Positions 6,477 through 36,574 of a stretch of DNA of 36,574 nt are shown one piece after another. Made by a program: the position numbers and the translations under genes. The notes beneath the pieces are model-generated. The model ran no database searches. It had not been told where the DNA came from and was given only the letters and a program-made list of their open reading frames with translations. The stretch's first letter is position 1, and every line of letters starts with the position of its first letter. This DNA is from Chrysochromulina tobinii. Taxonomy: Eukaryota. Location: assembly GCA_001275005.1 (NCBI GenBank), contig JWZX01002989.1:1-36574 (forward strand), written 5' to 3'.

Positions 6477-7058
6477 CGCGTCTTCGCGTGTGCAAGAGTG
6501 ACTCGCGGCAGTGCAAGTATCGACTCTCTCCGCGCATGCAAACGGAACCGAAAGAAACAAGTTTTCCGCACCGTTGAATTGTCAAGCGTCAAGTGGTGGT
6601 GTAGAGTGGTTCGAGGGAGACAGGGAGTAGGGTAGTGTAGGCGCTTACATATTGGTGGAAGCTTCAATGCACCACGCAGGGAGTCAGGGACACCGACAGC
6701 TAGTAGCTACAACATCCACAAGCACATGTTCCACGTATCTGATACGTATCTGAGTTACGTTAGTCCGCCGAGGCCGATGTGTCATATTCCGCAACATCTC
6801 GTTAACATCAAGTGCAAGAACGGTCTCGTCGTGCTGCTCGTCCTTGACGTTTCATGTAAGCTCCGATTCGCGGCGAAACCGCGGTTGGTATACCCTAAGT
6901 TGATCTGTAGGGCGTCGGGTAGGCGTCGGGCCCACTTGCACCAGCCGAAGCGCACGAGGATGATAGTCAGTTGACGAGCTCGGCCATGCGGCGGGCGGGC
7001 ACCATTTGCGTCACTGCATGCGCACGACCGAAACAGCGCGCCAAGTTTTGAAGTCAAC

Positions 7059-8025
7059 ATGTTGGACATCGACCTTTTTCGCGTCGACCGGGGCGGCAAC
7101 CCGGACATCGTGCGTGAGTCACAGCGGCGGCGCCACAAGGATGTCTCGCTGGTCGACAAGGTGATCGAGCTTGACACCGAGTGGCGCTCGACCCGCGGCG
7201 GGCTCGACAATGCCAAAAAGGTGTTGAACCAGGTCCAGAAGAAGATTGGCGAGTTCATGAAGAAGAAGGAGAGCCCGCCTCCCGAGCTGATGAAGGAGAA
7301 GCAGGATGCCGATGCCGAAATCACGAAGCTCGAGGCGAAGGAGAAGGAGCTCATCGAGGCGCGCGACAACACGCGCGTGGGCAATCTCGTGCACGAAGAC
7401 GCGCCTCTCGTGGCCGCGCCACCTGCGCAGCGCGGGCTGCCAGCAGACACGCTGCGCCGCTGCCTCATGGCCTCAGGCCTCGCCGAGCCCGTCGCCAGCG
7501 GCACCGTGCCGAGCCGCTCGTGGCGTGCGGTGGGCGACGGCTTGCTGCTCCAGCAGCAGTGGCTCTCTCACGCGCTCGCATTCGTGTCGGCGCGAGGCTT
7601 CGAGTTGCTCCACGCGCCGCTTCAGCCGTGCGCGGACCGGCTCGACAAGCTCGACAAGCTGCGCCGCGGTCGCGGCGAGCAGGGGACTGGTGTCGCTGTG
7701 CTGGCCACACGGCTCGCGACCGATCCGCTCGGCGCGTTGCATGCATGCAGGTGCGCGGATGGCCCATTGCCACTGATGGCGTGGATTGCCTCTGATTGCC
7801 CCTGATTGCCCCTGATTGCCCCTGATTGCAACTGATTGCAACTGATTGCAACTGATGGCGTGGATTGCCCCTCTACTTACCACACTGAGCGCGATGGCTC
7901 GTCTCCTTGCATGCAATGCAGCTGCCTACCGCCCACCGAGCTGCCACGTAGCTATGCCCTTCTGCGACCATATTTGGATAACTCTTCGTCGTCCTCCGCA
8001 GCCCTCGTGAACGGCGGTGGCGGCA

Positions 8026-8063
<38 letters not shown>

Positions 8064-8723
8064 TTGTCACTGCTCATCGACGCGTGCCAGGCGCCGCAGC
8101 TGAGCGCGTCTGTCATCTGTGAAGATGACGGCTCGTGCTGGGAGACTCTTGATGAGTTGATTACGATGGCCGAGCACTTGCATGCGGATCTCATCGGGCG
8201 AGATCGGCTCCAGATCGTCGAGCTCGCAACCACCGAGCTCCGCGCAGTCGAGGCGCGTGCCTATCTGCTGTGTGCCGCGCCACCGCCTAGCACGGCGCCA
8301 CCGCCCAGCACGGCGCCTCCGACCAGCACGGCGCCACCGCCCAGCACGGCGCCACCGCCCAGCACGATACCAGATGCGCCGGTCGCAGCGGCGGGCGGGC
8401 CGCCGCCCAGTACCGGTACTGGTCGTTACGGCATCGAGCTCGCTCGCATCTGGTGTGAACACGAGTACTGTGCGCGTGAACTCGGTGTGAGGTGCGGCTA
8501 CCCGTCGCTGGGCGACACAAGCCGCCGGCACGTGCACACGCTGGGCGCGGACTTGTTCTCACCCGCCGCCTGCCTGCTCGCGCTCGCGGCCGCGGCGCCC
8601 GGTACGGCGCTCGATCACGAGGAGGCGGGTCGCGCCGTGCCGAGCGCTGACCCGCGAGATGCGCTGCCGAGCACCCATCGCGCCACGTGGCTGCCAGAGA
8701 AGCATCGCCAGGGAGCGAGGTAG
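7059..8723 (+). CDS. Seryl-tRNA synthetase-like protein with degenerate catalytic domain; exons 7059-7750 and 7922-8723 (~497 aa)
   Basis: The N-terminus MLDIDLFRVDRGGNPDIVRESQRRR...VDKVIELDTEWR...GNLVHED is a well-conserved eukaryotic cytosolic SerRS arm. GT-AG intron 7751-7921 rejoins in frame (AG+C = Ser). Downstream blocks (ELPRSYA; SCWETLDELITMAEHLHADL; ELARIWCEHEYCARELGVRCG; HVHTLGADL) are collinear with the SerRS catalytic domain but lack motif 2 FRxE and the motif 3 Arg. Confidence 0.8.
7751..7921 (+). other. Spliceosomal intron (GT-AG) with CTGATTGC decamer array
   Basis: gcag|GTGCGCGGATGGCC ... atgcaatgCAG|c. Phase 2, restores the frame between ORFs 7059 and 7836. Confidence 0.85.
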
Positions 8724-9203: not shown

Positions 9204-10406
9204 TCACTTCCACAGCTTCTTGAGCGACGTGTTCTTCTCCGAGTCCTTCTTCATCACCTTGGCGACCGCCATCTCGAAGTCGTCCTGCGTCACGTGCACG
9301 CGCCGCTCGCGCAGCGCGAACATGCCCGCCTCCGTGCAAACGGCCTTGGTCTCGGCCCCGGAGGCCTCGTGCATCGACTTTGCAATCTTGCGAAGGTCGA
9401 TGCCGCGGGTCAGGTTCATCTTGCGACTGTGGATGGTGAGAATGTCGAGGCGCGCGTCCTCGTTCGGGTTCGGGAACTCGATCTTGCGATCGATTCGGCC
9501 CGGCCGCAGCAGCGCTTGGTCGAGGATGTCAATGCGATTCGTGGCCATGACCACTTTAATTTGGTTGGTGGCCTCGAAGCCATCCAGCTGGTTGAGGAGC
9601 TCGAGCATCGTGCGCTGGACCTCCGAGTCGCCGCCGGACTCGCCGTCCTGGCGCGCGCCGCCGATCGAGTCGATCTCGTCCATGAAGATGATCGAGGGCG
9701 CATGCTCGCGCGCCATCACGAAGAGCTCCCGTACCATGCGGGAGCCCTCGCCAATGTACTTTTGGACCAGCTCGCCGCCCGAGACACGGATGAAGGTGCA
9801 ATCCGTGTGGTGGGCGACCGCGCGCGCGAGCAGCGTCTTGCCTGTGCCTGGCGGGCCGTACATGAGCACTCCCTTGGGCTGCGCGATCCCTAGAGACTCG
9901 AAGAGCTCAGGATGCTTGATCGGCAGCTCGATCACCTCCTTGATCTCCTTGATCTGCTTGTCGCAGCCGCCAACCATGTCGTAGGTGGAGTCGGGCACCT
10001 TCTCGACCTTCATGAGCGACACGAGCGGGTCCACCTTGGATGGCAACACCAGGTGCAGCGCGTACGAGTCGTTGCGCAGTGCGACGCGGTCATTGACGTT
10101 GAGCTTGCCGATGTCGATCGACTTGTCGATGTCGACGACGTACTTGCCCTCCGGGTGAACCTTGACGAGCACCTTCTTACGCCCCATGATCGCCACGAGC
10201 TCGCCCACGTACGAGCCCGGCTCCTGCAGCAGCGACAGCTCCTCGCGCAGGTGGCGCACCATGGAGTTCAGCTCATTGCGCTGGGCCTCGAGACGACGTA
10301 GGTTTTGTGTGCGCTCGCGCACGATGACCTCGAGCTCCTCGATCTTGGCGGCGTAGTAGTTCTGGATGCCGCCCGAGGCGGACGTTGGCGCCGCCACCTT
10401 GGCCAT
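9204..10406 (-). CDS. PSMC5: 26S proteasome regulatory AAA-ATPase subunit 8 (Rpt6), 400 aa, intronless
   Basis: [45 protein letters not shown], Walker [47 protein letters not shown] and C-terminal SLKKLWK. ATG at 10406. Confidence 0.97.
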
Positions 10407-10936: not shown

Positions 10937-13900
10937 ATGCGCTTAGTACTCGGGAGTGCTCGGGCGGTCGCCGTGGTGGCCCCGTCGTCGCAGCAGCGCT
11001 CGCTTCAGCGTCTGACGGCGGCCGCGTTGCACAAGACGGCGACGACCAGCATCTTGCGCCACGGCCAGTGGATAGTCGTGGGGGCCACGCGCCCGGAGCG
11101 CGAGGCGGCGGCGCGGGAGGCTGTTCAGGTCGTGAGGCCTTGGCTGCTCTCGGGCGTCGACGCCTCTGCGACCAGCAGCAGCAGCGGCGGCGGCGCCGTC
11201 GACGGCGGGGGTGGCGGCGGCCTTGGCCTCGACCGCCCCCCGTTGTTGAGCTTGCGCGAGGAGCAGAAGCAGGTGATGCTCAACGGCGCCCACGTGATGG
11301 CCAGCGCGATGGGTGCCGTGGCACTCACGGCGACGAGCGCGGCGGAGGCTGCGCGCACGGCGCTGCTCCTGGCCGCCGTCGTTGCACGCCTTGCGCTGGG
11401 CGCAGGCCCGTCCGGTTTGCATGCAACGCTCGAGACGACGCGCGGCCTCCAGTTTGGCGTGGCCAAGGCGAGCGGCAGCTCGTCCGACGAGAGTCGCCAC
11501 GCGCCCAAGCCGCCCAAGCTCGCCATCTCCGCCAAGGACAAGGAGAGTTCGAAGCTCCCAAGCCCACCCCGACCTCCATCGGAGAAGGAGGACAAGACGA
11601 CCAGGAGTGCACCGAAGCTCAACAGCGCGCGCGGCGCGAGGAAGGCGGCGGACAACAACCCTCTAGGCGGCGGCTCCAGTAGCGCGCGCGGAAAGCCTGC
11701 GGAGAAGAAGAAAGAAGGGGGCGTCTCCGAGAAAGGGACCCCCCGCTCCGCCGCCACGTCGAAGCCGTCGGTGTCGCTGCCACCACCCCAAGACGGAAAG
11801 CCGAGCTCCGCTGCGCCGCCGTCGGGGGCCGGCGGAGGCGCCTCTGCTGCGGCCCCAGCGCCGAGCGCGCGTGCCATGTCGGCGCCAAGTGCCAAATCCA
11901 AGGGACCTACGGCTTCCAAGGGCGCGCCTGAGACGAAGAAGCTCGAATTGTATCTCGAGCCGGAGGTGCCCAAGCCGGCGGGGTTGGTGTACCAACCCAT
12001 CCCGCCCTTGCCCGCAAGCATCAAGAAGCCCCCGGGCGTGCCGATCATCTCGCCGGCGGGCACGCGTCCTCGTGGGCGACAGGACGGCGCGCCATCTCGG
12101 CACGATCTCGCACCCACCGATCGGATCGGGTGGGCGCTCCTCTTCAACTGCTTCAAGGCAAAGTTTGAGGTGCGTCCGAGTGCTCCTTTCTGATGGCCCT
12201 ATCCGAGGACCCTTTCTGATGGCCTCCTCTGATGACGAGCACCGATTGGCTCCCTCATCAGGTGATTTCGGGCGACGCGACGCTGCTCTCGGACCACGAC
12301 CCTTTCGATCTCAAGGGACCCAGATCGGGCACGTCGATCGGTCGTATCAAGATCGCCCCTGCGAAGGGGACCCCTCTGGTCGAGCGCGTCGAGTTTTCGA
12401 ACGACTGGCTCCTGGCCGATCTGCATGGCGTTCAGCATGACTACTACCAAGGCGAGGGCACCATTGATCTCAAGGTGGAGTGGCGCAAGGAGACTGGCGG
12501 TGTCGAGTCGATCATGATTCGCGTGACGCCCTGGCTCGCGTACGCGTGCTCGGTTGGGTGCCGCATGCAGCTGCGCAAGCCGGGTGAGGCCGAAGGTCGC
12601 ACGTGCACGGTGCAGCGCGTGCTGCCGGACGATCGATGCGTGGTGCGGGTCGACGGCCTCTCCGGCACCGACCCTAAAAAGGCAGTCGGTTCGGCCGAAG
12701 ACGTGGTCGATGCCTCGCCCTCCACTTGTGTGCCCACATCGAATCGTCGCTACCCGGCGGGCGCGCGCCTGCTCGTGCTGCACGAGGCAGCGTGCTCTGA
12801 CGCGGTCGTCGAAGATTGGGGAGGCCCAATAGGTGTGCTTGGCACGGCGCTCGGCCCCATCCCTCGCAACTGCCCAAGCATGCATGTGCTCACCACGGCA
12901 CCACGTCCCGGCTGGACAGATCCCAAAGAGTGCCCAAGCATGCATGTGCTCACCACGGCGCCACGTCCCGGCTTGACAGATCCCAAGGAGGGCTCGCGGC
13001 ATCGACTCTGGCTCGCCCAGGGCGGCGCCGTCTTTGGCTGGGTCACTTGCAAGACGACAAGCAACATCAACAACCTGATCCCCTCGGGAATGGAACTACC
13101 CGAAACCCTCCCTTCGGAGCTCAACCCGCTCAGCCCGACAGAGGTCACAGTTCCGGCAATTCAGGCCGAGATTGAGTTCACTGTGGGCAGCCTGATGCAG
13201 GTGCGCGCGCCCACCGGCCACGCATGAAGCGCCGTCCCGAGCGTGCGCGCACTCGAAGCGCCGTTCCGAGCGCCCGCATGATGCACTGCTGCTCACCGAT
13301 CCCTCCCCCGCCCTGATTCGGCAGGTGGTCACCCCCCAACCGCTTGTGATGCGTGCGGGCTGCCATCTCTCGACCGCGCGCGTGGGCGTCCTTCCACTCA
13401 AGACGGAGGTCCGTCTGCTTGAGATCCGGATGCACGACGGCGGGCTGCGTGCCCGGGTCGAGAGGGTCGCTGCCGAAGAAGACGCCGTCGTGATCACCGC
13501 CGACCTGAATGATGTGAATCACAGTGTGCAGCGGTTCACCTCTGCCGCAGAGTACGAGTCCGCACGCTGTTCGTACTGTGACGAGGCTCGGAAGCAGCTT
13601 GAGTATGTAGAGGATGCGATCACGGGATCCGACCTGCCCATCGCCGAACAAGTGATCTACGTCAACACGAGCGAGTACGTCGATGCGGCCAAGAACATGC
13701 GTCCCGAATGGAAGGCCATCAAGGAGGGCATCGATATGGTCGAGGTGCGTCTCCAGCCCACGCAACGCCGTCCCGAGCGCTCGAAGCGCCGTATCGAGCG
13801 CCCGCAAGCACCTTGGCATCTGCTCAGCTGATCCGTCCCCTCCCCCCCCTGGAATCCCCCCCCCCCCTGGTTCACCCTGGGTTGGCAGGTGCTCCTCAAG

Positions 13901-16900
13901 GCTTCGAAGCGCCGTCCCGAGGGCATGCACCTGGCGCAGCCCGGCCTGGTGGTCGCCGGCCCAGGCACGGGCACCACCTGGATGGTTCGTCAGATCGTGC
14001 ACTCGTGCGCGACGAAACTCACCGATTCGGATGCGCTGGGTGAGGGCGGCGTGCGCCTCGTTCCCGTGATCGTCTTCGTGCAGCGCATCGTCCGCCTGCT
14101 GCGCGACACGGGCACTGACCCATGGAACGTCGTCAAGAAGCGGCGCATGATGATCTGGTACATTGAGAATGAGTTCCCTGGCAAGTCCATGAAGCTCTTC
14201 CGCGACTGCCTGTGCCAAGCTTACGACATGCGCGCGCTGGTCATCCTAGTGGACGGTGTGGATGAGGCCGCCTCGCTCAGGCTGCATGTCGAGGAGTTCA
14301 TCCACTACGAGCTCGTGCCCAGTGGGAATCGGTTACTGGTCACCTCGCGTCCGGAGGGCATTACCATGCCCTTGTACCTGACCAACTTCGCCGTGGTCTC
14401 GCTCCGTCCGCTGACGGAGAGCCAGCAGCGTCGGGTGGCGCAATCGCAGATGCGCGGATCGGCGTTCTATGAGCACCTGGTCGCCATCACCGCCGCGCGC
14501 AAGCGGCAGGACGAGCTCTGGCAGGAGCACTACCCCACCGAGGCGGTGCGCACGAAGCTCGAGTCAGTCGAATTCACACCGAGCGCGGCCGATTCTACCG
14601 GTCCCTCGCTCTTGATGCGCACAAGCCCGACGCCCAACAGCGACTCGACGCCACCACTCTCCCCCGTGACGCCTGAGCGCAAGAAGATGCAGATCATGAT
14701 GGCCAAGGGCTCCGAAATCGAGGAGCAGACTGCCATTGATACCCTCGATCAAATCATTCGGTCGGTCGCGACCGAGTCGGGCATGGCGCCCGACGACGTC
14801 GAGAATGCGCTGTCGTGGCTTGACGAATCTTCGGCTGACCGCATGCCGCGGAAGATGGAGATGGAGGAGGACATTGCGGCCTTTGCGCGGCTCGAGCTGC
14901 GCGGCGAGGAGATCTACACTGCCGTGCTGATGAAGCTCATCGACGGCGTCGAGGTCGAGATCGTGTATGGGCCCGACCTCGACGAGAAGGAGAAGCAGCG
15001 CCTTGCGGTCTTCGCGCCCGAACGGCTCGCCGCCATGCTCGACAACAAGGCGAAGCTCACGCTGCTGTACCTCGAGAATCGGTTCGCCAAGTTCGACCCA
15101 ACGCACACGCGCGACATTCTGACGTACCTCAAGATGCGTTACAAGGGGCAGACGCTCTCGTGCGAGTTGCAGCTCATCCACACCGAGATCTTGCAGGTGA
15201 CGGAGCGAATGGACACGTACTCGCACCTGCGCTACTTCCGACTGCAGGCCGCTCTCAAGCTCGAGCCAGGTGCCCTCATGCTGCCCCCTGCCGAGCTCGA
15301 CAAGAAGTTCGAAAAGTCGTTGCTCTTTGCCGAGGAGGCGAGTGGCGTGCCCGTGCTGCTCTCCATGTTCGTCCTCATCCTCGTCTCGGGCGCGGATGAT
15401 CTGGCGGCGCTCCCCACCTCGCGCCTCGAGCTGTACCAGACGGCGACGGACTCGGCGCTGCGCCGGCGCATCAAGCGCACGCTGCAGGTGGCGCCTTTGA
15501 TCGCCTCTGATCGCCTTTGATGGCCTCTGAGTGTACTGGGAGGCCATCTGCTTGCATTTCGGCGCACGGTGCAGGGGGGTGCCCTTGATCCTCCTTGATT
15601 GCCATCGATCGCCACTGATGAGCTTCGTCCGTGTGCAGGCGCCCAAGGAGGACCCCGCGGCGCCCAAAATCAAGAAAGATCAGAGCGACCCCGCCAAGCC
15701 CCTGGCGGCGACGGATCCCAAAGTGGCCGAGGCGGCCAAGGCGGCGGAGGAGAAGGCGGCGGCCGAGAAGGCGGCGGCTGAGAAGGCGAAGGCGGAGGCG
15801 CTTCTGGCGCTCGCGGCCCAGGCGGTGGCGACCAAAGCCGACGAGGGGGCCAAAAAAGGCGTCAAGGAGACGCCGAAGGAGAAGGAGAGGAGGGAGAAGG
15901 AGAAGGAGAAGGAGCTGCTGAAAGAGAAGGCGGCCAAGGAGAAAGAGCGAAAGGCGGCTGCCGGCCAGGCAACGCTCAACCTTGCCGGTGCGATTCCGCA
16001 GAAGCTCGAGCCGTTGAAGGGAGAGGAGTCGGTGGTGGCCGTGCATGCCGTCACGATGAAGATCCTCGAGAAGGTGCGCAACGGCGACAACCTTCGCGAC
16101 TCAATCCAGCGCTACGTGCCCGAAGGCAACAAGCTGCGCCCTTGGGTCAAGGCGCTCGTCGAGACGGCCCTCGAGCCGGCCAACTTGTCGGCGCAGCCGT
16201 GCGGTCTGCGGATGCTCCGACGCATTGCCATCGCCAATCAGGAGGCGGGCAGGCGTGAGTTCTCCTCGAAGGACGTGGCGCTCGTGCTCTGCTCACATGG
16301 CGATGAGCTCATCCTGTGGTTGCGGCTCGAGCAGGTGCGTCCACTGATTGCCTCTGATTGCCTCTGATTGCCTCTGATTGCCACCCTAATCTTTGGATGC
16401 GGCACGAGCAGGTGCGCGGATGGCCTCTTGATGGCCTCTTGATGGCCTCTGATGGTCTCTGATGGCCATCTGATTGCCTATAAAGGCGTCTCATCACGCC
16501 TCCTCCTTTGAGCACGGCTCATGAGCAGAACCAAGAGTACGGCGTCGCGCTCATCAAGATGCTCGAGCCACCGACGGACACGCTCCCGGCGGTGTACCAG
16601 TTCAAGCATCTCTCCTTCCAGGAGGGCTTGTTCGCGGAGCATCTGCTCTCCGTCGTCGAGGACCCTTCCTGGACTGGCTGGGATAACGATGTGGTCGCCG
16701 CCGCCTTTTTGAACAACGCGTACATGAACAACACGTGCCGCATCGCGGCCGGCCAGCTGGGCACCTTGCTGGCCAAGCGGCGCAAGGCTTGGAAGTTTTC
16801 GGTCGTTGAAGGCTCAAGTTTGGGCATTGTGGGCCGGCGTGCGCTCTGGTACTTGCTTGAGGGCAACGAGACGCTGCAGATGCTCGACCTGAGCGGCAAC

Positions 16901-19900
16901 GGTGTCGGATTGGAGGACGGCATGGGCATCGTCAACCTGCTCCGCAGCTGCGCGGCGCTCAAATCGCTCGACTTGTCCGACAACAGCCTCGATACCCTCA
17001 AGCGTTCACAGCTCTCGGCTGTGTGCCGCTCGCTCGGTGGGAACGTGAAGCTGACGGAGCTCAACTTGTCGAACAATCGTCTGGGGTCGGACGGCTGCAA
17101 ATCGATCTGCACCGCGCTGCAGGGGTGCATCTCCCTACGCTACCTCGGCCTGAGTCACAACCAACCGATGCGTGAGATGGCGCTCCCGAATCTTCTCCAG
17201 ACTCACAAGTCGCTCACGGACATTTCGATCGTCGAGGCGGACTCGAAGTGGCTCGACAGCCGCGCCAAGGACAACATTGGGCAAGCACTGCTCCAGAACG
17301 AGGGTGGCAAGCTTTCCTTTTGCGAGTGCGACTCGTTTGCGCTCACTCCGGAGACCAAGTCGCTCATCTGGACCTCTTCTCTCCCGGCGGATGCAGTGCT
17401 CCTCGCGGGGGTGCTCAAGACGAACACGACGCTCACCTCGTTCGCGTCGGCGGCGGGCAACAAGCTCAACGACGCGAGCCGCGCCGCTATCGGGCGGGCG
17501 CTGCTCCAGAACAAGAACGGTCGCGTCGGCTTCTGCGACGAGCTCGGACTGCGCGAGGGGGTCAAGTCGACAGAGATCGACCTCTCCACGTCCTTTCACT
17601 CGGTCGAGGCGTTCATGTTGCTCGCGGGCGTGCTGCGCGCCAACCGCACCCTCACGTCGCTCACGATGAACTCGCTCAAGACCGAGCACATCGAGCCGCT
17701 CGCCGAAGGCCTCCGCTCCAACTCGACGCTCGAGATCTTGAGATTGCAATCCTCATCCAACAAGGCCGGCCCGGGCGGCAAGCTCACGGTCGTGACGCTC
17801 CCAATCCAGCTGCTCAACGGTGCGCTCCAGCAGCCGATCATCGACCTCTCCTCCGCGGGCACCCTTTCGCGCGTCTCGTGCGCCGTCGTGGGCGTGCTCC
17901 TCGCCGAGAACAAGACCGTTCAGACCCTCAAGCTTTCCAAGACAGGCCTCGGCTCGGTCGTGCAGGCCGAGGGCGGCAGCATCATCTTCGATCCGCTCTC
18001 GGGCGGGGAGTCGACCCTCTACCAGCTCGACCTGTCGGAGATGGAGCTCGGCGACAACGGCGGGCGCAAGATTTTTGAGGCGCTCCTCACCGGCCGCTGC
18101 CGACGGATCACATCGCTCATCCTCTCGTCCAACGGCCTCTCGGACGAGACCGCGCGCGTGATGCACCAGCTGCTCCAGAATAACGAGGTGTGCACCCTCA
18201 CCTCGCTCGACCTGTCGCACAACATCATCAACGCGGGCATGCTCTCGCGCGCCATCAAGCGCAACACGACGCTCAAGTTCCTCAACGTCAAGGGTTGCGG
18301 GCTGAGCGAAGAGTCGCTCAGCGACATTGGCGACTACCTGCTGGGCGACGACTGCAAGTGCGTGGATGGCCCCTGATGGCCCTTGACGGCCCCTGATGGC
18401 CACTGATGCCCTCTGGTGCCCACTGATGCCCGCTGATGCCCACTGATGCCCACTGATGCCCACTGATGCCCACTGATGATGGCTGATGGCTGATGATGGC
18501 TGATGATGGCCGCTGACGAGCTCTGATTGCGCCCATCATCAGGTGCCGACTGGGCCAGATCCGATGTGATCTGTTCGAGATCGAAGACGGAGCGACGCAT
18601 CTCGAGCTCATCTCACGCAAGCTCTCGGTCGCCACCTCGCGCGTCCTCTTCGGAGTGCTCAAGCACAACACGTCACTCAAATCCGTCTCCATCCTCGGCT
18701 GCGGCATCGACGCCGAGGGCGCCAAGGCGCTCGAGATGGCGCTCTCGACGAACACCTCGATCACGCTCATCGACTTGTCAGGTAACAAGATCCACACGAG
18801 TTCGGAAGGCGTCCAGGCCCTCACGCGCGCCGTCGAGCGCAACAAGCGGCTCGAGAAGATGATCCTCGACGGGCCCGGCTCCGATCTCGTCTTCAAGGAG
18901 CTCCGCGTCGCCGCGCACCTGAACATGAACGGGAAGCGGCTGCGGCTGCTATCGGGGCGCCGTGATGGGCGCCCTCGTCGCCCCGAACCTCAACCTCACC
19001 GATTTGAACCTCGAGAACAACGAATGCCTCGGACCGGTGGGCGCGAACGCCATCGCGGTCGCCCTCACGCAGCGCCAGTCGACGCTCAAGTACCTCAACC
19101 TCGCCGAATGTGGTCTCGCCGGATCCAGCTCTTGGGAGATCACGACGGCGCGCTCGGAGCGCTCAGCTACTGGCGAGGACGACGAGCCGGTCGGCGGCGC
19201 TCGGAAGGAGGACTTCCTTGAGCCCGAGGCGCCCCTTAAGCGTGAGAAGCGCGTCAAGAACGTCACCAACGCCACCAACGCCACCAAAGGGTCGAAGAGC
19301 GATGCCAAGGTGGACGAGAAGCCCCTCGAGTTCGATAAGTTCAAATCGGATCTGGATATCAAGACGCGCGCGCAGCTGACCGAGCTCATGGTCTCCATTG
19401 GCCAAATCTCGACCCTCGAGTCGTTGACGCTCGACAAGAACGCTCTCGCGGACGCCGAGTCGGCGCTCCTCACCCCGATCGGAAAGCTCTACAATCTGCG
19501 CTCGCTCTCGCTCTGTGGGAATCGTCTGACCGAGGTGCCCTCTTCCATCGGCTCCTTGCGCTCTCTGCAGGAGCTGTTGTTGCGCTCGAACCAGCTCAAC
19601 GAGCTTCCGAACGCCTCGATCGGGCTCCTCGGGTCCCTCGAGAATCTCGATCTCAAAGGCAACCAGCTCACGTACCTGCCCGACTCGATCGGGCAGCTGC
19701 GCACTCTCAAGTCGCTCGATGTGTCCGAGAACAAGCTGACCGAGCTACCGGCTTCCTTCGGCCTGCTTCGCGACACGCTCAAGCTGTCCGTCTCGCGCAA
19801 CCCGCTCCAACGCCCGCCCCTCTCGGTCGCGCGCCAGGGCATCGATGCGATCCGTCGCTACTTCAATGAGCTCAAGAAGAGCGGATCGACGACGAGCCGC

Positions 19901-22624
19901 GCGGCGCGCCTCGTGCTGCTTGGCGCGGGGCTCGCCGGCAAGACGTCGCTACAGCGCGGGCTGCGGCATGGGGCGGCGCGCCCAGCCAAGCTCGACGAAC
20001 GGACGATCCAGCTCGACATCCACACGCTACCCCTTGGCTCGGGCGCCGAGCAAGTCGTTCTCTCGATGTGGGATTTGGCCGGCCAGCCCGAGTACGCTGC
20101 CGGGCTGCAGCCGTACATTGTGCCGGGCTCCCTCTACCTGCTTGCCGTGCCCGCGCAGCTGTGCGCGGACGAGCACTACCCCGATGTGCTCGGCCGCTGG
20201 CTCGACTACCTTCAGGCAGGCGCGCCCGAGGCCGTGGTGCAGGCGGTGCTCACGCACTGCGACGAGCTGTTGCCCGAAGGGACTGCAGGCAAGGGGAACA
20301 TGTCAACGTCCGCGCTCGAGGAGGCATGCGAGCTCCAGGTGCGCTGGGTGAAGGAGAGCATGCGGCGGCACCAGGGCAACCTGCCCGCGGGCTCGAAGAG
20401 GCTGCTCATCCAGGACGCCGTGCCGTGCGTGTGCGCCGTCGCGGGCGGCGACGCTTCCCTCGCCAACCTGCGCTCACGCCTCGAGGCGATCGTGCTGGCG
20501 AAGCCGCCGCTGCTCCCTTGCATCGGAATGGCGATCCCGCGAACGTGGATCCTTGCGATGGGCTTCCTTCGCGCGCTTCGGGACGGTCGAGACCCTGTGG
20601 CCGTCGTCACGCAGAACTCGCAGCCGGAGGCATCGGCCGAGCGAGCCGTGCCGTACGTGCCGCTCGCGGATGCGATCCAGCTCTGGGTCGATGTGGTCGC
20701 CCCCAAGCTGCAGGTCGCGGCCGATGGCCAGGCGATCGAGGATACGCTCCAGGTCCTCGTCAATCAAGGCGAGTTCTTCGCGTCGAGCGGCATCATCTTC
20801 TTGCAGCCCGACTACGTGACGCGGCTACTCAAGCCGCTCGTCGACCATCGCGTCAACAAGGTGAACAAGGTGGCGGAGACGAGCCTTGGCGGGACGACGA
20901 TCCTTGGCTTCACTATCAAGGATCCCGTGCGCGTCGCGCTTCTCTCGTCGGCGGTGTCCACGTTTGTGGGCAAGGGCGACCTGCGCGAGGAGCTGTTGCC
21001 GTTGCTCTGGGAGCCTGTCGGCCTGCATGAGGACGACTACGGCTCAGTCCTCATGATGCTGTGCGCGAGCGGCGTCCTCTTCCTCGCCGAGCACACGCAG
21101 CAGGGGCGCAAGTGGATCATGCCGATGCGCTTGCCCGAGACACAGCCAGCAGAGCAGCTCGCCAAGTGGCATCGTCTGCGCACGTCCCCCGGCATCGAGC
21201 AGCTCGGCGTCGTGTACCCGCTCGGCGCCCTCGCCCCCCCGGGCATCGCCGAGCGGCTCATGTCGCACCTGTACGGGTTCGGCAAGTACCACGCGTTCTG
21301 GAAGGGCGGCACCCTCATCGAGACGCGTGTGCACAATGCGCTGCTGCTCGTCGAGCTGCGCACAAGGGACGGTGGCCAGGACTCGAGAGAAAGGCACCAG
21401 GATTTACACGAGCTCGTCCTCGAGCTGCGCGGGCCCAAAGCCCAGCGGAGCGACCTGTTCGCGCTGATCCTCAACGTGCGCAAGCGGACAGAGGTGCTGC
21501 TGCACGACTTTCCTGGGCTGCTCATCGCGGGCAAGCTCTCGTGCCCGGGGTGCGTCTTTGACGCGAAGCACTCGTTCGACCCGTCGCGCTGGGCCCTCGA
21601 TGAGGTCACTAGCCGTCCGCAGACCTGCCGCAAGTGCTCCGAGAACGTCTCCCTCGAAGGCGTCAAGATCAGCCAGATCGACGAGATGGGGGGAGGTGCG
21701 GAGGAGATTTCGCTCGCGCTGCCCTCGCGCGAGGGGATGAGCGTTATGAATGAGAACAAGTACGTGGGGGAGCTGCTCCGGCTCGGAACCCCAATTGAGG
21801 CGAGACAAGGGATCCACCGGTCTCTCAACGTGTCCGGCAAGCTGCTCTGGGAACGCTTCTCTGAGGGCGAGGAAGCCATCCTCAATGAATTCATGCAGAA
21901 CATTTCGCAGGAGCGTGATGCGATGGGCTGGTCGGACGGCGACTGGCTCCACTACGTCCTCTCGCAGACCGCCGACGAGCGCACGCTGCCTGTGGGCTAC
22001 TCGTCGACCAAACTCGATAAGGGGCACAAGGGCATGGCGCTCGACGACTTTTGCAAGCACCCGATCGCGGTGGGCGCGCGCCTCGACCGCGCCCACGTGC
22101 TCGCGCTGCGACTCTACTCCACCTCGGTCTTCCGATCGATCAACCGGCCGCTTCGCGAGGCGCGTAAGCATCCGTACCCCGCGCTCGTCTCACGCCTCGT
22201 CGACGGCATCGTCAGGCTGCGCGCGTACCAGTCTCAGAGTGATGTTCAGCGCACCTACGAGTTCTGGCGCGGGATGCGGGTCGAGGCGAGTGATGAGTTC
22301 TTCGCGCGCGGCACGACCGAGCTCGCCTTCTCGCCCACAATGCGCACTGAGCGCAAGGTGGCCGAGAGCATGGTCACGAAAGATGGCGCGAACGCGTCCG
22401 TGCTCATTCGGCTCCAGCTGACCATGAAGGAGGCGGGTGCCGATATTTCGTGGCTGAGCGTCTTCCCCGGAGAAGGAGAGTTCCTCTTCCCTCCGGGCAC
22501 GTACGTGGAGCCAAAGCCCTCGCGTGGAGCGACGATCCCTGGCGCGGTCCGCGTCATCGACGGCTTGGTGCACGTCAAGGAGCACCGAATCGAGCAGCTC
22601 GCACCGCGCGAGGCCTCCCCATGA
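10937..22624 (+). CDS. Giant multidomain NLR/ROCO protein (~3550 codons): disordered N-terminus, NACHT-type NTPase with RelA/SpoT-like insertion, RI-like LRRs, typical LRRs, Roc GTPase, COR, CxxC pair and ART-like domain. Exons 10937-12169, 12262-12832, 12980-13200, 13325-13744, 13889-15487, 15639-16334, 16529-18357, 18543-22624, with one apparent +1 frameshift at 18954-18957
   Basis: All seven proposed GT-AG introns join successive ORFs in frame. NACHT motifs: GPGTGTT (Walker A variant), LVILVDGVDE, LLVTSRPEG, VPVLLSM, RLELY, YQFKHLSFQE. LRRs: LxxLDLSxN, LxLxxNQLxxLPxSIGxL. Roc: GAGLAGKTSL, WDLAGQ, VLTHCD. ART-like: LALRLYST, FWRG, GADISWLSVFPGEGEFLFPPGTY. The start codon is uncertain. Confidence 0.75.
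12170..12261 (+). other. Intron 1 of the giant gene (GT-AG)
   Basis: gag|GTGCGT ... catCAG|gtg. Phase 0; contains an in-frame stop and ctgatggcc repeats. Confidence 0.8.
12833..12979 (+). other. Intron 2 of the giant gene (GT-AG, stop-free, contains a 60-bp tandem duplication)
   Basis: atag|GTGTGC ... ttgaCAG|at. Phase 1, giving WGGPIDPKEG. The duplication 12871-12930 / 12931-12990 provides two candidate acceptors (12919 and 12979). Confidence 0.6.
13201..13324 (+). other. Intron 3 of the giant gene (GT-AG)
   Basis: cag|GTGCGC ... cggCAG|gtg. Phase 0. Confidence 0.8.
13745..13888 (+). other. Intron 4 of the giant gene (GT-AG)
   Basis: gag|GTGCGT ... tggCAG|gtg. Phase 0; poly-C tracts near the 3' end. 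Confidence 0.8.
15488..15638 (+). other. Intron 5 of the giant gene (GT-AG)
   Basis: cag|GTGGCG ... gtgtgCAG|gcg. Phase 0; tgatcgcct/tgatggcct repeats. Confidence 0.8.
16335..16528 (+). other. Intron 6 of the giant gene (GT-AG) with an internal AG|GT at 16411/16412
   Basis: cag|GTGCGT ... gagCAG|aac. Phase 0; ctgattgcct and tgatggcct arrays. Confidence 0.75.
18358..18542 (+). other. Intron 7 of the giant gene (GT-AG) with ctgatgccca decamer array
   Basis: aa|GTGCGT ... catCAG|g. Phase 2, yielding DDCKCRLGQIRCDLF, which parallels the earlier FCECDSF and GFCDEL LRR-unit motifs. Confidence 0.85.
19900..21520 (+). other. Roc GTPase and COR domains of the giant gene
   Basis: G1 GAGLAGKTS, G2 T (RTI), G3 WDLAGQ and G4-like THCD, followed by COR-type motifs (IPRTW, IFLQPDYVTRLLKPLVDH, PPGIAERLM, FWKGG). 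Confidence 0.85.
21940..22575 (+). other. C-terminal mono-ADP-ribosyltransferase-like (R-S-E clade) domain of the giant gene
   Basis: ALRLYST..FRSINRPLR, FWRGM, TELAFS, GADISWLSVFPGEGEFLFPP. The ExE motif is retained; the STS/STT motif is atypical. Confidence 0.7.
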
Positions 22625-26286: not shown

Positions 26287-26441
26287 GCACAGAAAATGTT
26301 TTTTCTCAGCGCGAATGTGTGAATGCAAATCGCAGACGCCTTCGCTCAGCATCTGGTGGTTCAATGATTTGATCCACTACCGGTAAAAAGACACCGGGGG
26401 GAGGTAATCTTAATTAATAAGGTGGCGATCGCGGGCGCCAC

Positions 26442-27536
26442 ATGCCAATCCTGTTTTGTCGCGCCGACGACGAAGATGCGGACGACGACGACACGCTGCC
26501 GCGGCCGGCGCTGCCAGTGCCGGATGGCCCGGCAGTGGTCGATGAGAGCATTCCTCCCGCTGATGGCCTCGATTATCTCAAGCGCGTCCGCGCGCAGGCC
26601 GGCACGCTGCCAGACGTGATGAGGATCCCGAGCGAGCAGCAACGGCAGTGGAAGCAAGACTCTGGAGCCTCGCGCAACCCGGGCTCGAATTCTTCGCACC
26701 GTCAGTCGCTCATTGCTGCGCTGGAAGCCGCCGCCTCGGCGCCGCTGGCACCACCGCCGCCTTCGCTGCGACCGCGGGCAGCATTCCAGGAGCAGCTCCT
26801 TGCCGATGTTGCGGAGGTGCGCACGCGCTTGCTCCAGCTGCTTCCCGGATACAAGGGCGCCAAACCACCAGCGGCAGCATCGTGTCCTGATGCATCCGAC
26901 ACGGCGGCATGGGTCGCTTGGAGCCTCGGTGCCGCCAGCGCTGGTGCAGGCAGCAAGGGCAGCGGCGGCGGTGGCGATGGGCATGGTGGCCGTGGTGGCG
27001 GAAGTGGGCGAGCTTGGGCGCGCCCAGCGGCATCGGCGTGGCCGGAGGCGCAACTGCCGACACCGCAGCGCCTCGCTGCCCTCAACACGTCGCGAGCCAT
27101 CGGATTGCTTCGTGGTCTCCTTGTCGCACTCGACGCTGAGCGAGCGACGCTGCCGCCGCCGCTGAACAACCCGTCGCCGCCGACCGCCTCGTCGGCGGAG
27201 CCGGCGGTGCCAGCGCCGTGGGCGGCTGCCCTGGTGGAGGCGGAGGTTGCCCCCAGCGAGCCTCTCGCGCGCTGGGCTTTTGCAGCCTTGATGCGCCTCG
27301 AGAACGCCCACCACGATGCGGACACGGGCGCAGCGGTGCGCGCGCTGTACACGAGTTGCAGCGCCGTGCGCGCCGAGCTGGGCGCGGCTCTGCTGGCGAA
27401 TGGAGGAGCAGCGGCTTCTGCGTGGTCGGCGCTGCCGGCGCCGGCGGCGCGGCGTGTGGCGCGCCTCAACGTTCTCATCACGCTCAGCGGCGGCCTCTTC
27501 GGCCAAGCGCCTCGCGACGAGTGGATGGGCGACTGA
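26442..27536 (+). CDS. GEMIN2: Gemin2 / SMN-interacting protein 1 homologue (364 aa)
   Basis: RPALPV, PPADGLDYLKRVRAQAGTLPDV, WAFAALMRLE...ADTGAAVRAL...C and C-terminal LNVLITLSGGLFGQ are Gemin2/SIP1 hallmarks. Confidence 0.85.
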   Translation: MPILFCRADDEDADDDDTLPRPALPVPDGPAVVDESIPPADGLDYLKRVRAQAGTLPDVMRIPSEQQRQWKQDSGASRNPGSNSSHRQSLIAALEAAASAPLAPPPPSLRPRAAFQEQLLADVAEVRTRLLQLLPGYKGAKPPAAASCPDASDTAAWVAWSLGAASAGAGSKGSGGGGDGHGGRGGGSGRAWARPAASAWPEAQLPTPQRLAALNTSRAIGLLRGLLVALDAERATLPPPLNNPSPPTASSAEPAVPAPWAAALVEAEVAPSEPLARWAFAALMRLENAHHDADTGAAVRALYTSCSAVRAELGAALLANGGAAASAWSALPAPAARRVARLNVLITLSGGLFGQAPRDEWMGD

Positions 27537-33531: not shown

Positions 33532-35072
33532 TCAGCACTTCCAAATGCGGCACGTGTTGTCCTTGGAGCCGGTGATGATGGTATCGCCCTCGTAGTTAAA
33601 GGCGGCCGAGAAGATCTCATCCGTGTGCCCCTCGAGCACTTGCATGCAGTCGCCACTCTCGACATCCCAAACGCGGCAGGTGCGGTCCGACGAGGCGGTG
33701 ATGATTTTGTTGCCCTGCGGGTTGAAGGATACCTTCGAGATCTCTCCCTCGTGTCCGATTAGGATCGCTTGGCACGCGCCCGTGGTCGTATTGTACACAC
33801 GCGCCGTGCCATCGGCCGAAGCAGTGACCAGCCGCGTGCCCGCCGTGTTGAACGCCACATCGAGGATCTCGTCATTGTGGCCGCGCAGCGTGTGCAGACA
33901 CTCGCCCGAGCGAACGTTCCACACCTTGCACGTGCGGTCGATCGAGCCCGAGATGCAGAGCTCGCCTGTGAAATCGAACTGCGTCGACGAGATCTCACCG
34001 CGATGGCCCGCGAGCGTCTGGAGGCACGCGCCCGTGCTGCAGTCCCATACTTTGGTGGAGTGGTCGAAGGAGCCCGTGATGATCATGGTGCCCGCCGTGT
34101 TGAAGTTGAGCGAGACGATCTCGGCCGTGTGCCCGAGGAGTGTACACATCTCCGTGCCATGCGCCACATCCCACAGCTTCGCGGTCGAGTCCATCGAGCC
34201 CGTCGCCACGACCGTGCCCGTCGGGTCGAAGGAGAGGCACACGATCTCGGTCGTGTGCCCTCGCAGCGTCTGCAGCAGCTCGCCGGTCGACGAGTCCCAG
34301 ATCTTGGCCGTCTTGTCAAACGAGCCCGTCACCACCTTGTCACCGAACGGGTTGTTGAACGCGATCGCGTACACCACGTTCTTGTGCCCTTCGAGCGTCA
34401 GGAGCTCCTCGCCTGTCAGCGTGTTCCACACCTTGCACGTGCGGTCGTACGAGCCGGTGATGAAGCGGTCGCCGCTCTTGTTGAATGCACAGTTGGTGAG
34501 CGGCAGGATGTGCGCGCGTAGGATCTTGAACAGGTAAAAGTTCTGCGGCAGCTCCGAGGTGTCGATCTTGTCGATCCTGCGCCCCGCGAGAGAGGAGGGG
34601 GGTGGTGAGGCCGGGAAGGCAGCCGTAGAGGCGAAGCGAGGCCGTGGCGGGCTGCAGCGTCGGCAGCGGTGCGTGGCGGCCACGGCGGGCTAGCGCGTGG
34701 GCGCGGCGGCGTGTAGGCAGAGGAGGCGGTGGAGGCGGTGGAGGCTGCGGGCAGAGGTGGGGAGCGCGCACAGCTTGTAGACGAGCTTGAGGAGCTGCGG
34801 CCGGCGGTTTTCGCTGATGAGCGGTTCGGTCCGGATGATCTGGCTGACGAGGGCGTCGACATCCGTGTTGGGGGCGAGCGTGAGCAAGGGGATGTCCTTT
34901 TGCAGCATCTGCACGAGAGGCGAAGGCGTGGGCTCGTCAGCGCCGGGGCATGCACGAGAGCGCAGGAGTGTGACTCGGCGCGGATCGCGCGCGGCGGCAC
35001 CTCGCCATCCTTTTCGTACTCGAGGATGATGCCTGGGGGGTAATAGCGCAGCAGGAAGCGCTTGAGCTTCAT
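33532..35072 (-). CDS. DAW1: Dynein assembly factor with WD repeats 1 (WDR69/ODA16); exons 35072-35001, 34908-34772, 34576-33532 (417 aa)
   Basis: N-terminal [61 protein letters not shown] and eight WD40 repeats ending [14 protein letters not shown] introns 35000-34909 and 34771-34577 join in frame. Confidence 0.95.
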
Positions 35073-35229
35073 CACGCCAGCGGCGCCGACGATAGAGCGT
35101 TGGCCCGCGTCTCGCGGCGCACGGTCGACTGCGCTCGGTTCGTCACGAGACTTTGCAACGAGTCTTGTAGCTGACGAGCAAACATCTCGTCTTCCCACAG
35201 CTCGCGGAAGCAGAAGTGCGTCCACAGCC

Positions 35230-35469
35230 ATGGTAGACGAGGGACAAGCGGCGGCCGATGCCGCCCCGCCAGCGGCGGCCCCCGCGCCGGATTGGGACGC
35301 CGCCGACGCGACCGATGGCCCGACCGATGCCAACCTGGGCGCGGACAAAACCGCCGGCGGCGATAGCTCAGTCGACTCGCCCCCCATCGGCCTCGGCGCG
35401 CCCCGAGTGGAGGGGGCCGCCAGGGCGCCTCCACCGGTCCGCTCGGGGCGGCAGGGCAAGGCTGACGAG
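35230..35469 (+). CDS. Possible first exon of a gene divergent from DAW1 (MVDEGQAAADAAPP...)
   Basis: ATG in good context (gccATGg) 158 bp from the DAW1 start and a gag|GTGCCC donor-like site at 35469/35470. No recognisable domain. Confidence 0.25.
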
Positions 35470-35729
35470 GTGCCCGAGCAGCGCCTGGTCACCCGAACAG
35501 CGCCCGCTGCCGCGCTCCCGCGCGGTTGTGGCGGGCGGCCACGGCCGTTGGCAGTGCACCCGCGGACGCGGCGCGCTAACCCAGGCATCCTCAAATGGCG
35601 TGGTAGGTCAGGCGGCTTGCAAGCTGCCGTACGCCACGACACTGTGGTTACTCGACGCCGTCGCTCGTCACGCGACGGCGGCGTCGAGTGACTTATTCTG
35701 CGTTCCCTTTCGGGGGGCGCGCCAACGGG

Positions 35730-36574
35730 CGCGTCTACCGACAGTGCAGACAACGCCCGCAGCGGCCCCGGGAGCCCTGTACAGTGCGTTTGCGCCGCAG
35801 GCTGCTACGCGCACTCCCACTGCCAGCAAGCGCGTGCGGAAGCGTGCGGCTGCCGCCCGCCGCACGCTCGCTGGCTGCGTGTGCGCCGCAGGCTGCCGCA
35901 CGCCGCACGCCCGCCTAACACCCGCCTAACCCGACCCGTCTGTCGTGTGTGCAGGCTTCAGCCCGAGTCCGAAGTTGTGCCTTATAGGGCGGGAGCGAGC
36001 CGCGGCGCGGAGAGGCGCGGAGAGGTTACGTTACGTTAGTCCGACGGTCGCGGTTCCGATTGGTCGGGCCCGGTGACCGGTGTACGTTGCAATTTGCATG
36101 GCGCGATGGCGGTTTTAACACGATGCGGTGTATTGGTGAAGGCCGGGCGAAACGCGGGTTCGGTCAGCGTTGCAGTGTTCGGTCCGCAGCGCGCGCCAGC
36201 GGGCAGACCGGCGAAATACGAACCACTAGAGACACACACACAGCCAACCTATCTCTTTGGCGGCGCGACCGCCCCCAGTCTCTAAGGACTAAGCGCGCGC
36301 GACCGGGCCGCGACGCCGCCGCAGGACCGCCGCCGCGCCTCTTCGCGCCACACGCTCGCCCTCGAAGGCAATGCCTTCGACTCCGGTGCGGCAGCCTGCG
36401 GCCGCACACGCAGCCGGCAGGCGTTAGGCGGGCGGGCGGCGGGCGGCAGCCGCACGCTTCCCGCACGTGCATTGCTGGCAGTAGGAGTGCGCGTAGCACT
36501 GCCTGCGGCGCAAACGCACTGTATCAGGGCTCCCGGGGCCGCTGGGGGCGTTGTCTGCACTGTCGGTAGACGCG
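35730..36574. mobile_element. Long-inverted-repeat (MITE/foldback/MULE-like) non-autonomous element, right end beyond the window
   Basis: 35730-~35865 is the near-exact reverse complement of ~36435-36574 (cgcgtctaccgacagtgcagacaacgccc.cagcggccccgggagccctg...). Similarity continues with a gap to gcccgcctaac (~35910-35930 vs ~36421-36435). The TSD is not visible. Confidence 0.75.

Follow-up and report, generated by a model that had tools for sequence, protein, structure and literature searches.

The locus and its gene model

The window analysed, i.e., the whole stretch of 36,574 nucleotides of a Chrysochromulina tobinii contig, contains at positions 7059 to 8723 a gene for a catalytically degenerate paralogue of seryl-tRNA synthetase (SerRS), called pseudo-SerRS in the following. 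The gene starts with the ATG at 7059, consists of two exons and ends with base 8723; splicing yields an uninterrupted frame of 497 amino acids. Its parts are, in order of position:

7059–7750, plus strand: exon 1, codons 1–230 plus 2 nt
7059–7373, plus strand: tRNA-binding arm, codons 1–105, with equivalents of Arg9, Gly13, Arg44, Asp51 and Asn58; by its sequence a recent graft
7374–7379, plus strand: junction of the graft, in frame and shortened by two codons relative to both parents
7380–7406, plus strand: hinge at the base of the arm, GNLVHEDAP, of the family type and conserved
7515–7619, plus strand: helix and strand of motif 1, still recognisable; Pro retained in 16/16
7713–7727, plus strand: degenerate serine-binding loop without TSE
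7751–7921, plus strand: intron, GT-AG, 171 nt, with short internal repeats
7922–8723, plus strand: exon 2, stop codon included
7980–8063, plus strand: Ser/poly-Gly tract in the place of motif 2, with in-frame length polymorphism
8280–8369, plus strand: insertion of Pro/Ser/Thr hexapeptide repeats, a variable loop with a 36-nt in-frame length variant
8490–8537, plus strand: loop of fixed length matching the loop of human SerRS in contact with METTL6 and the anticodon stem, Leu427 at 8508
8544–8576, plus strand: degenerate motif 3, with Asn, Thr and Arg lost

An earlier sequence-only reading had described an open frame with a clean intron, and this was borne out: splicing out 7751–7921 (GT..AG) yields a protein which is collinear with its orthologues across the exon junction, and the acceptor context is unchanged in all three strain loci covering that site. 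No in-frame ATG is found upstream of 7059, and pseudo-SerRS thus has no presequence.

Exon 1 gave a Pfam match to Seryl_tRNA_N (PF02403; E 7.8e-22) and matched cytosolic SerRS structures as well. No Pfam match to the class II core (PF00587) was obtained with pseudo-SerRS; exon 2 alone had no Pfam match, and in the PDB only Gly linkers were matched. The family has stayed unannotated because Pfam recognises the arm only. Motif 1 (G-F/Y-x-x-h-x-x-P) is present. In the numbering of the C. tobinii SerRS, E238 of the TSE motif, R267, E269, R282 and F286 of motif 2 (FRxE...R.H.F, a pattern which pseudo-SerRS lacks), and N393, T395 and R401 of motif 3 are absent; all eight residues occur in 53/53 aligned canonical cytosolic enzymes. 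The catalytic loss proposed from the sequence (TSE, motif 2, Arg of motif 3) was hence found at every one of these positions. Beyond the arm, the catalytic domain has about 21% identity to canonical SerRS and 32–50% to members of its own family. The Ser/poly-Gly tract is a local filler; its length varies from strain to strain, and in the orthologues its place is taken by different variable loops. A six-frame profile scan and tblastn revealed no other catalytic exon in the window; alternative splicing which restores motifs 2 and 3 was ruled out, since no further catalytic piece is available there. From these sequence features, it is very probable that pseudo-SerRS would not charge tRNA and would bind tRNAs with a long variable arm.

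Several other genes were noted in the window. A 26S proteasome AAA ATPase (9204–10403, minus strand), presumably RPT6-like, lies tail to tail with pseudo-SerRS and is syntenic in the strain loci L003–L005. The region 12220–22624 (plus strand) is probably one very large multi-exon gene. Its product combines a Roc domain and numerous LRRs with a NACHT domain and a C-terminal ADP-ribosyltransferase-like domain, the latter two weakly matched; this NLR/ROCO-like architecture is unusual for an alga. A protein of the SIP1/Gemin2 family is encoded at 26421–27536 (plus strand), and a WD40 protein at 33535–34689 and 34416–35804 (both minus strand), where part of the N-terminal text recurs in the upstream frame, a sign of additional exons or of a local duplication.

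The active enzyme and the origin of the arm

A canonical cytosolic SerRS does exist in C. tobinii: it is KOO33784, which has its own arm (PF02403, E 5e-24). The canonical protein nearest to the window gene clusters with KOO33784 and with the SerRS of C. parva, which points to a Chrysochromulina-like haptophyte as the source. Its transcript was present among RNA contigs from cultures containing the window DNA. The arm is present in 8/8 aligned haptophyte active enzymes. In P0053 and relatives, which are haptophyte canonical SerRS, a C-terminal Dpy-30-type domain was observed, and in some copies an HMA-like domain; the dead paralogue has neither.

The strong conservation of the arm of pseudo-SerRS, noticed in the sequence-only reading, is real, as far as identity to the active enzyme is concerned, but it is not the state of the family. 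Within residues 1–104, 99 of 104 are identical to the C. tobinii SerRS (95% over codons 1–105), while identity of the window arm to the family's own arms is 26–50% and that of the orthologue arms to the active enzyme arm 26–38%. On the DNA level, 16 differences in 321 nt (7058–7378) were counted against the canonical transcript contig, which diverges from the window before the ATG and runs on as canonical sequence after 7378; among the 10 changed codons listed in the arm, 6 are silent. In an arm tree the window and the C. tobinii SerRS were joined (98/90), apart from the other 15 arms (100/99). When the window arm was forced to group with the pseudo-SerRS arms, the log-likelihood was lower by 13.6, with an AU test p of 0.068 over 104 columns, i.e., this topology was not formally rejected; the claim of a graft is based on the 95% protein identity and the DNA identity and not on the AU test. 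On these grounds, the arm is a recent copy of that of the active cytosolic SerRS. It was likely acquired from the active gene by gene conversion or template switching. Since the identity results from a recent graft, it cannot be used to argue for long-standing selection on tRNA binding.

An assembler-made chimera or a decaying pseudogene would be another explanation for such a gene. It is very improbable and already largely refuted. The same junction was encountered in P0116, in L005 and in 9/9 sequences of the P0115 cluster; the copies show allelic differences, and the changes fixed in the grafted arm are common to them. Recurrence in independent assemblies with different alleles makes an assembly artefact unlikely. 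Since the graft has been retained in at least 11 sequences, a genuine tRNA(Ser) arm is presumably tolerated in this protein or of advantage to it.

The evidence from RNA could be counted in favour of decay. Contigs of four RNA runs cover both exons and the region beyond the stop codon thinly; none contains the splice joint, the uncovered parts being uninformative, and two extend into the intron. One contig has the window-specific letters of the arm. A ranking of expression is not possible from these contigs. In run X15, canonical and window-type arm variants were observed at 7091–7218 with similar contig depth, which could be due to expression of the paralogue or to a converted allele.

Against decay, selection on the coding region was apparent. 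In comparison with the strain locus L005, 9 synonymous and 4 nonsynonymous changes were found (pN/pS 0.16, p 0.0015), and every indel among four strain loci is a multiple of three and in frame. These values are strain-level only, since the metagenome scan yielded 5 loci out of 41 candidate stretches, all from near-identical strains. The coding region of pseudo-SerRS is under purifying selection. At the level of strains, the selection check suggested earlier thus pointed to constraint, and decay, which had been named as the alternative, is contradicted by this value as well as by conserved orthologues with open frames in a family of 31–52% identity.

Relatives in other haptophytes

A search for orthologues in other haptophytes had been proposed, and at least 16 near full-length relatives were found besides the window protein, with identities of 31–52% to P0008; the catalytic losses are common to all. 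More divergent members extend the family to Diacronema. Two proteins of the family are named, Diacronema lutheri KAG8467382 and a protein of Prymnesium polylepis from EukProt, an entry which is presumably transcriptome-derived; the others are environmental proteins, probably from haptophytes. Residue counts given here refer to 15 near-full-length relatives (plus the window protein where stated); P0177, partial proteins and two more divergent members are additional, and P0231, whose frame is apparently disturbed, was excluded from the counts, as were the partial proteins. A protein search targeted at the catalytic domain returned 7 proteins, one of them new. From the ESM Atlas only clusters of ordinary SerRS were obtained, none above 0.89.

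The full catalytic set is present in none of the 15 orthologues or the window protein. R282 and N393 occur in 0/15 orthologues, and R267, E269 and R401 in 1/15 each, in poorly alignable stretches. Identity of the family to canonical catalytic domains is 18–22%. Collinearity with SerRS, as had been noted, extends over the entire protein: a family profile aligned with cytosolic SerRS from one end to the other (E 9e-44). A first model of the orthologue P0008 had canonical sequences in its alignment and was remade without them; with an alignment of 30 family sequences only, the pLDDT was 82.9, and SerRS was the best structural match of the model (Z 27.6, rmsd 3.0, 346 residues aligned). The fold evidence is that of P0008, which stands in for the window protein. 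The class II SerRS fold is, according to this model, intact over the whole length of the family protein. Best matches in sequence and fold were to cytosolic SerRS, in agreement with the designation as a cytosolic-type paralogue.

In trees of the catalytic domain the family forms one clade (support 99–100), in which the Diacronema pair branches first, a position subject to long-branch warnings; the pair shares the change of Ser359 to Arg, which supports its placement inside the family. With pseudo-SerRS and haptophyte canonical SerRS as one clade, the AU test gave p 0.44, and the tree is thus compatible with more than one parent lineage within cytosolic SerRS. A Logan protein of 387 aa, P0171, is a cytosolic-type SerRS without TxE, motif 2 and the Arg of motif 3; it falls outside the haptophyte family in the tree and has a Leu in the same loop (see below for this loop). 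By its sequence, P0171 is possibly an independent dead paralogue of another protist.

In the literature searched, with few subscription papers among it, a dead cytosolic SerRS of haptophytes is nowhere described. The family is real, conserved and apparently undescribed.

Conserved surfaces, possible function and known systems

Mean column conservation was compared between 17 family members and 53 canonical enzymes. Only four regions of the family equal or approach canonical conservation: the N-terminal helices (0.68 versus 0.74), the hinge (0.69 versus 0.68), the stretch 240–262 (0.71 versus 0.62) and the loop 376–392 (0.67 versus 0.58). Conservation of motif 2 has collapsed (0.31 versus 0.90), and that of motif 3 is also much lower. 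The beta-hairpin before TSE belongs to the SerRS dimer interface; in the family it is variable (0.41 versus 0.86) and is replaced by helices in the P0008 model. The coiled coil is Ala-rich and poorly conserved. In the old active-site pocket, new invariants have appeared, namely S359 to Arg in 14/16 and N362 to Cys in 15/16; the residues of a DD-x-S-x-W motif are family-specific as well.

These invariants would fit a role unrelated to tRNA, such as a scaffold, a DNA- or mRNA-binding protein, or a protein in which the Arg, the Cys and DD-x-S-x-W make up a novel ligand site, with the graft being a neutral accident; the state of the coiled coil would be in accord with this. Such a role is quite improbable, however, since nearly all members have kept the architecture of the arm and the arginines facing the tRNA. 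R9 is present in 13/15 orthologues and R44 in 15/15; the corresponding residues of human SerRS contact phosphates of the variable arm, as reported in PMC4666401. In the same account, mutation of D51 abolished charging, and N58 is described as invariant. Asp51 was found in 3/15 orthologues and Asn58 in 0/15; the grafted window arm has the equivalents of Arg9, Arg44, Asp51 and Asn58, all four.

The retained arm fold with R9 and R44 would also suit a general chaperone or sensor of tRNA(Ser) or tRNA(Sec), which protects, channels (e.g., in the selenocysteine pathway) or regulates these tRNAs and has no special link to m3C. Haptophytes have large selenoproteomes, which was counted in its favour. 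The graft is compatible with any tRNA-binding role, and tRNA(Sec) is gripped by the same SerRS arm, according to PMC4666401. This reading of the sequence is rather unlikely, because it leaves unexplained why the loop 376–392 is better conserved than in the active haptophyte enzymes.

It is this loop which may point to another function. In the structure of METTL6, SerRS and tRNA, as reported in PMC11479938, METTL6 contacts two SerRS loops only, K12/G13 and M416/M417; the M416/M417 double mutant abolishes methylation, ATP and serine are dispensable, and both protomers are touched by each tRNA. Stimulation of Trm140 by yeast Ses1 is reported in PMC5311504. At the first loop, Gly is present in the window protein and in 11/15 orthologues. 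The second does not vary in length among 17/17 family members, and 16/17 have a Leu, Met or Val there; it is longer in the two members of Pavlovales type, one of which has no hydrophobic residue at this place. In the haptophyte active enzymes the hydrophobic residue is found in 0/8, and three loop lengths occur; in other canonical SerRS it is found in 17/45 and missing in 28/45 (plants, many fungi, green algae), so that lack of it does not disqualify an enzyme as a METTL6 helper. Alignment with human M416 requires a shift of one residue, and the second Met is absent in the family; since the family is a single clade, the residue counts are not independent, and for both reasons the match is a lead rather than proof.

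[quoted passage not shown] After duplication, labour would have been divided, the active enzyme keeping catalysis and the copy a surface facing the methyltransferase. The paralogue would grip the long variable arm without aminoacylation, and the tRNA(Ser) would be handed over for formation of m3C32; in the C. tobinii copy, the graft may have restored the full grip. As a candidate role, partnership with a tRNA-modifying enzyme, which was among the options of the sequence-only reading, gains support from the sequence of the METTL6-contact loop. Against a methyltransferase role it can be said that the conserved patches could equally represent structural packing, that the orthologue arms have lost Asp51 and Asn58, and that the dimer hairpin is eroded.

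Erosion of the hairpin bears also on a SLIMP-like subunit, i.e., a heterodimer with the active SerRS in which the arm is lent across the dimer and serylation is tuned. A dead site with an arm is the design of SLIMP (PMC10570016, as far as described there), motif 1 helix and Pro are retained, and a copy of the active enzyme's arm would fit a shared substrate. By analogy, such a subunit is nevertheless unlikely: the active haptophyte SerRS has a full arm (the match to PF02403 given above), the reciprocal loss by which SLIMP becomes necessary is missing, and the region of the beta-hairpin is variable, and helical in the model. The heterodimer proposed earlier is weakened by these two points, the arm kept in the active enzyme and the eroded hairpin. 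A complex prediction of C. tobinii SerRS with P0008, a non-cognate stand-in and with alignments unused, gave a score of 0.00, which speaks neither for nor against a heterodimer.

If the methyltransferase helper is considered further, a broader scheme, possible though doubtful, could be drawn from the sequences. The SerRS jobs would have been split between two genes before the divergence of Pavlovales and Prymnesiophyceae, with the active enzyme losing the METTL6-docking loop and the dead paralogue becoming a dedicated selector of tRNA(Ser) for m3C32; a worn arm could be renewed when gene conversion copies precisely this domain from the active gene, and P0171 may be convergent. A METTL6 helper would explain the retention of a dead synthetase, and would be a natural separation-of-function mutant, in which charging of tRNA is uncoupled from its modification. 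The graft represents a natural domain swap, and versions with the old and the new arm could be compared for tRNA specificity.

With canonical cytosolic SerRS (KOO33784; PDB 6gir, 8p1y, 4l87) the dead paralogue shares homology over the full length, the fold and a 95% identical arm, but it has lost TSE and motifs 2 and 3, which the canonical enzyme has, and also lacks the C-terminal Dpy-30 domain of the haptophyte enzyme. Among other reused class II folds, aa:CP ligases are not known to have the arm. HisZ, aa:CP ligases and the HisRS-like domain of GCN2 demonstrate reuse of the fold beyond charging (described in PMC9437257); they differ in their parent enzymes, and aa:CP ligases are active. Non-charging paralogues of aminoacyl-tRNA synthetases were among the lower fold matches of the P0008 model. 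In the available text of the same review of duplicated synthetases, the functions of SerRS paralogues are confined to SLIMP and aa:CP ligases (PMC9437257). The cytosolic SerRS as a cofactor of METTL6 or Trm140, as presented in PMC11479938 and PMC5311504, has in common with the paralogue the arm arginines, a counterpart of the K12/G13 loop and a candidate counterpart of the M416/M417 loop, and aminoacylation is not needed; in human and yeast this cofactor is a moonlighting active enzyme, whereas here it would be a separate dead paralogue.

A close parallel is the SLIMP/SerRS2-alpha heterodimer of invertebrate mitochondria. According to the accounts in PMC10570016 and PMC10817482, a collapsed active site, retention of the fold and of the tRNA-binding coiled coil, and fast evolution together with retention across a whole lineage are shared. 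The partner of SLIMP has lost its coiled coil, which SLIMP complements (PMC10570016), whereas the haptophyte active enzyme has an arm. SLIMP is bilaterian and derived from the mitochondrial SerRS2; the haptophyte paralogue matches cytosolic SerRS best, in sequence and fold, and differs further by having no presequence, an eroded dimer hairpin and, in one lineage, an arm re-grafted from the active gene. The suggestion of an independent analogue derived from a cytosolic enzyme agrees with these matches and with the haptophyte, non-SerRS2 affiliation. The family would be a second, independent SerRS-derived pseudo-enzyme of eukaryotes, cytosolic and in a major algal phylum; it resembles the design of SLIMP but is of cytosolic type and independent origin, and is not a SLIMP.
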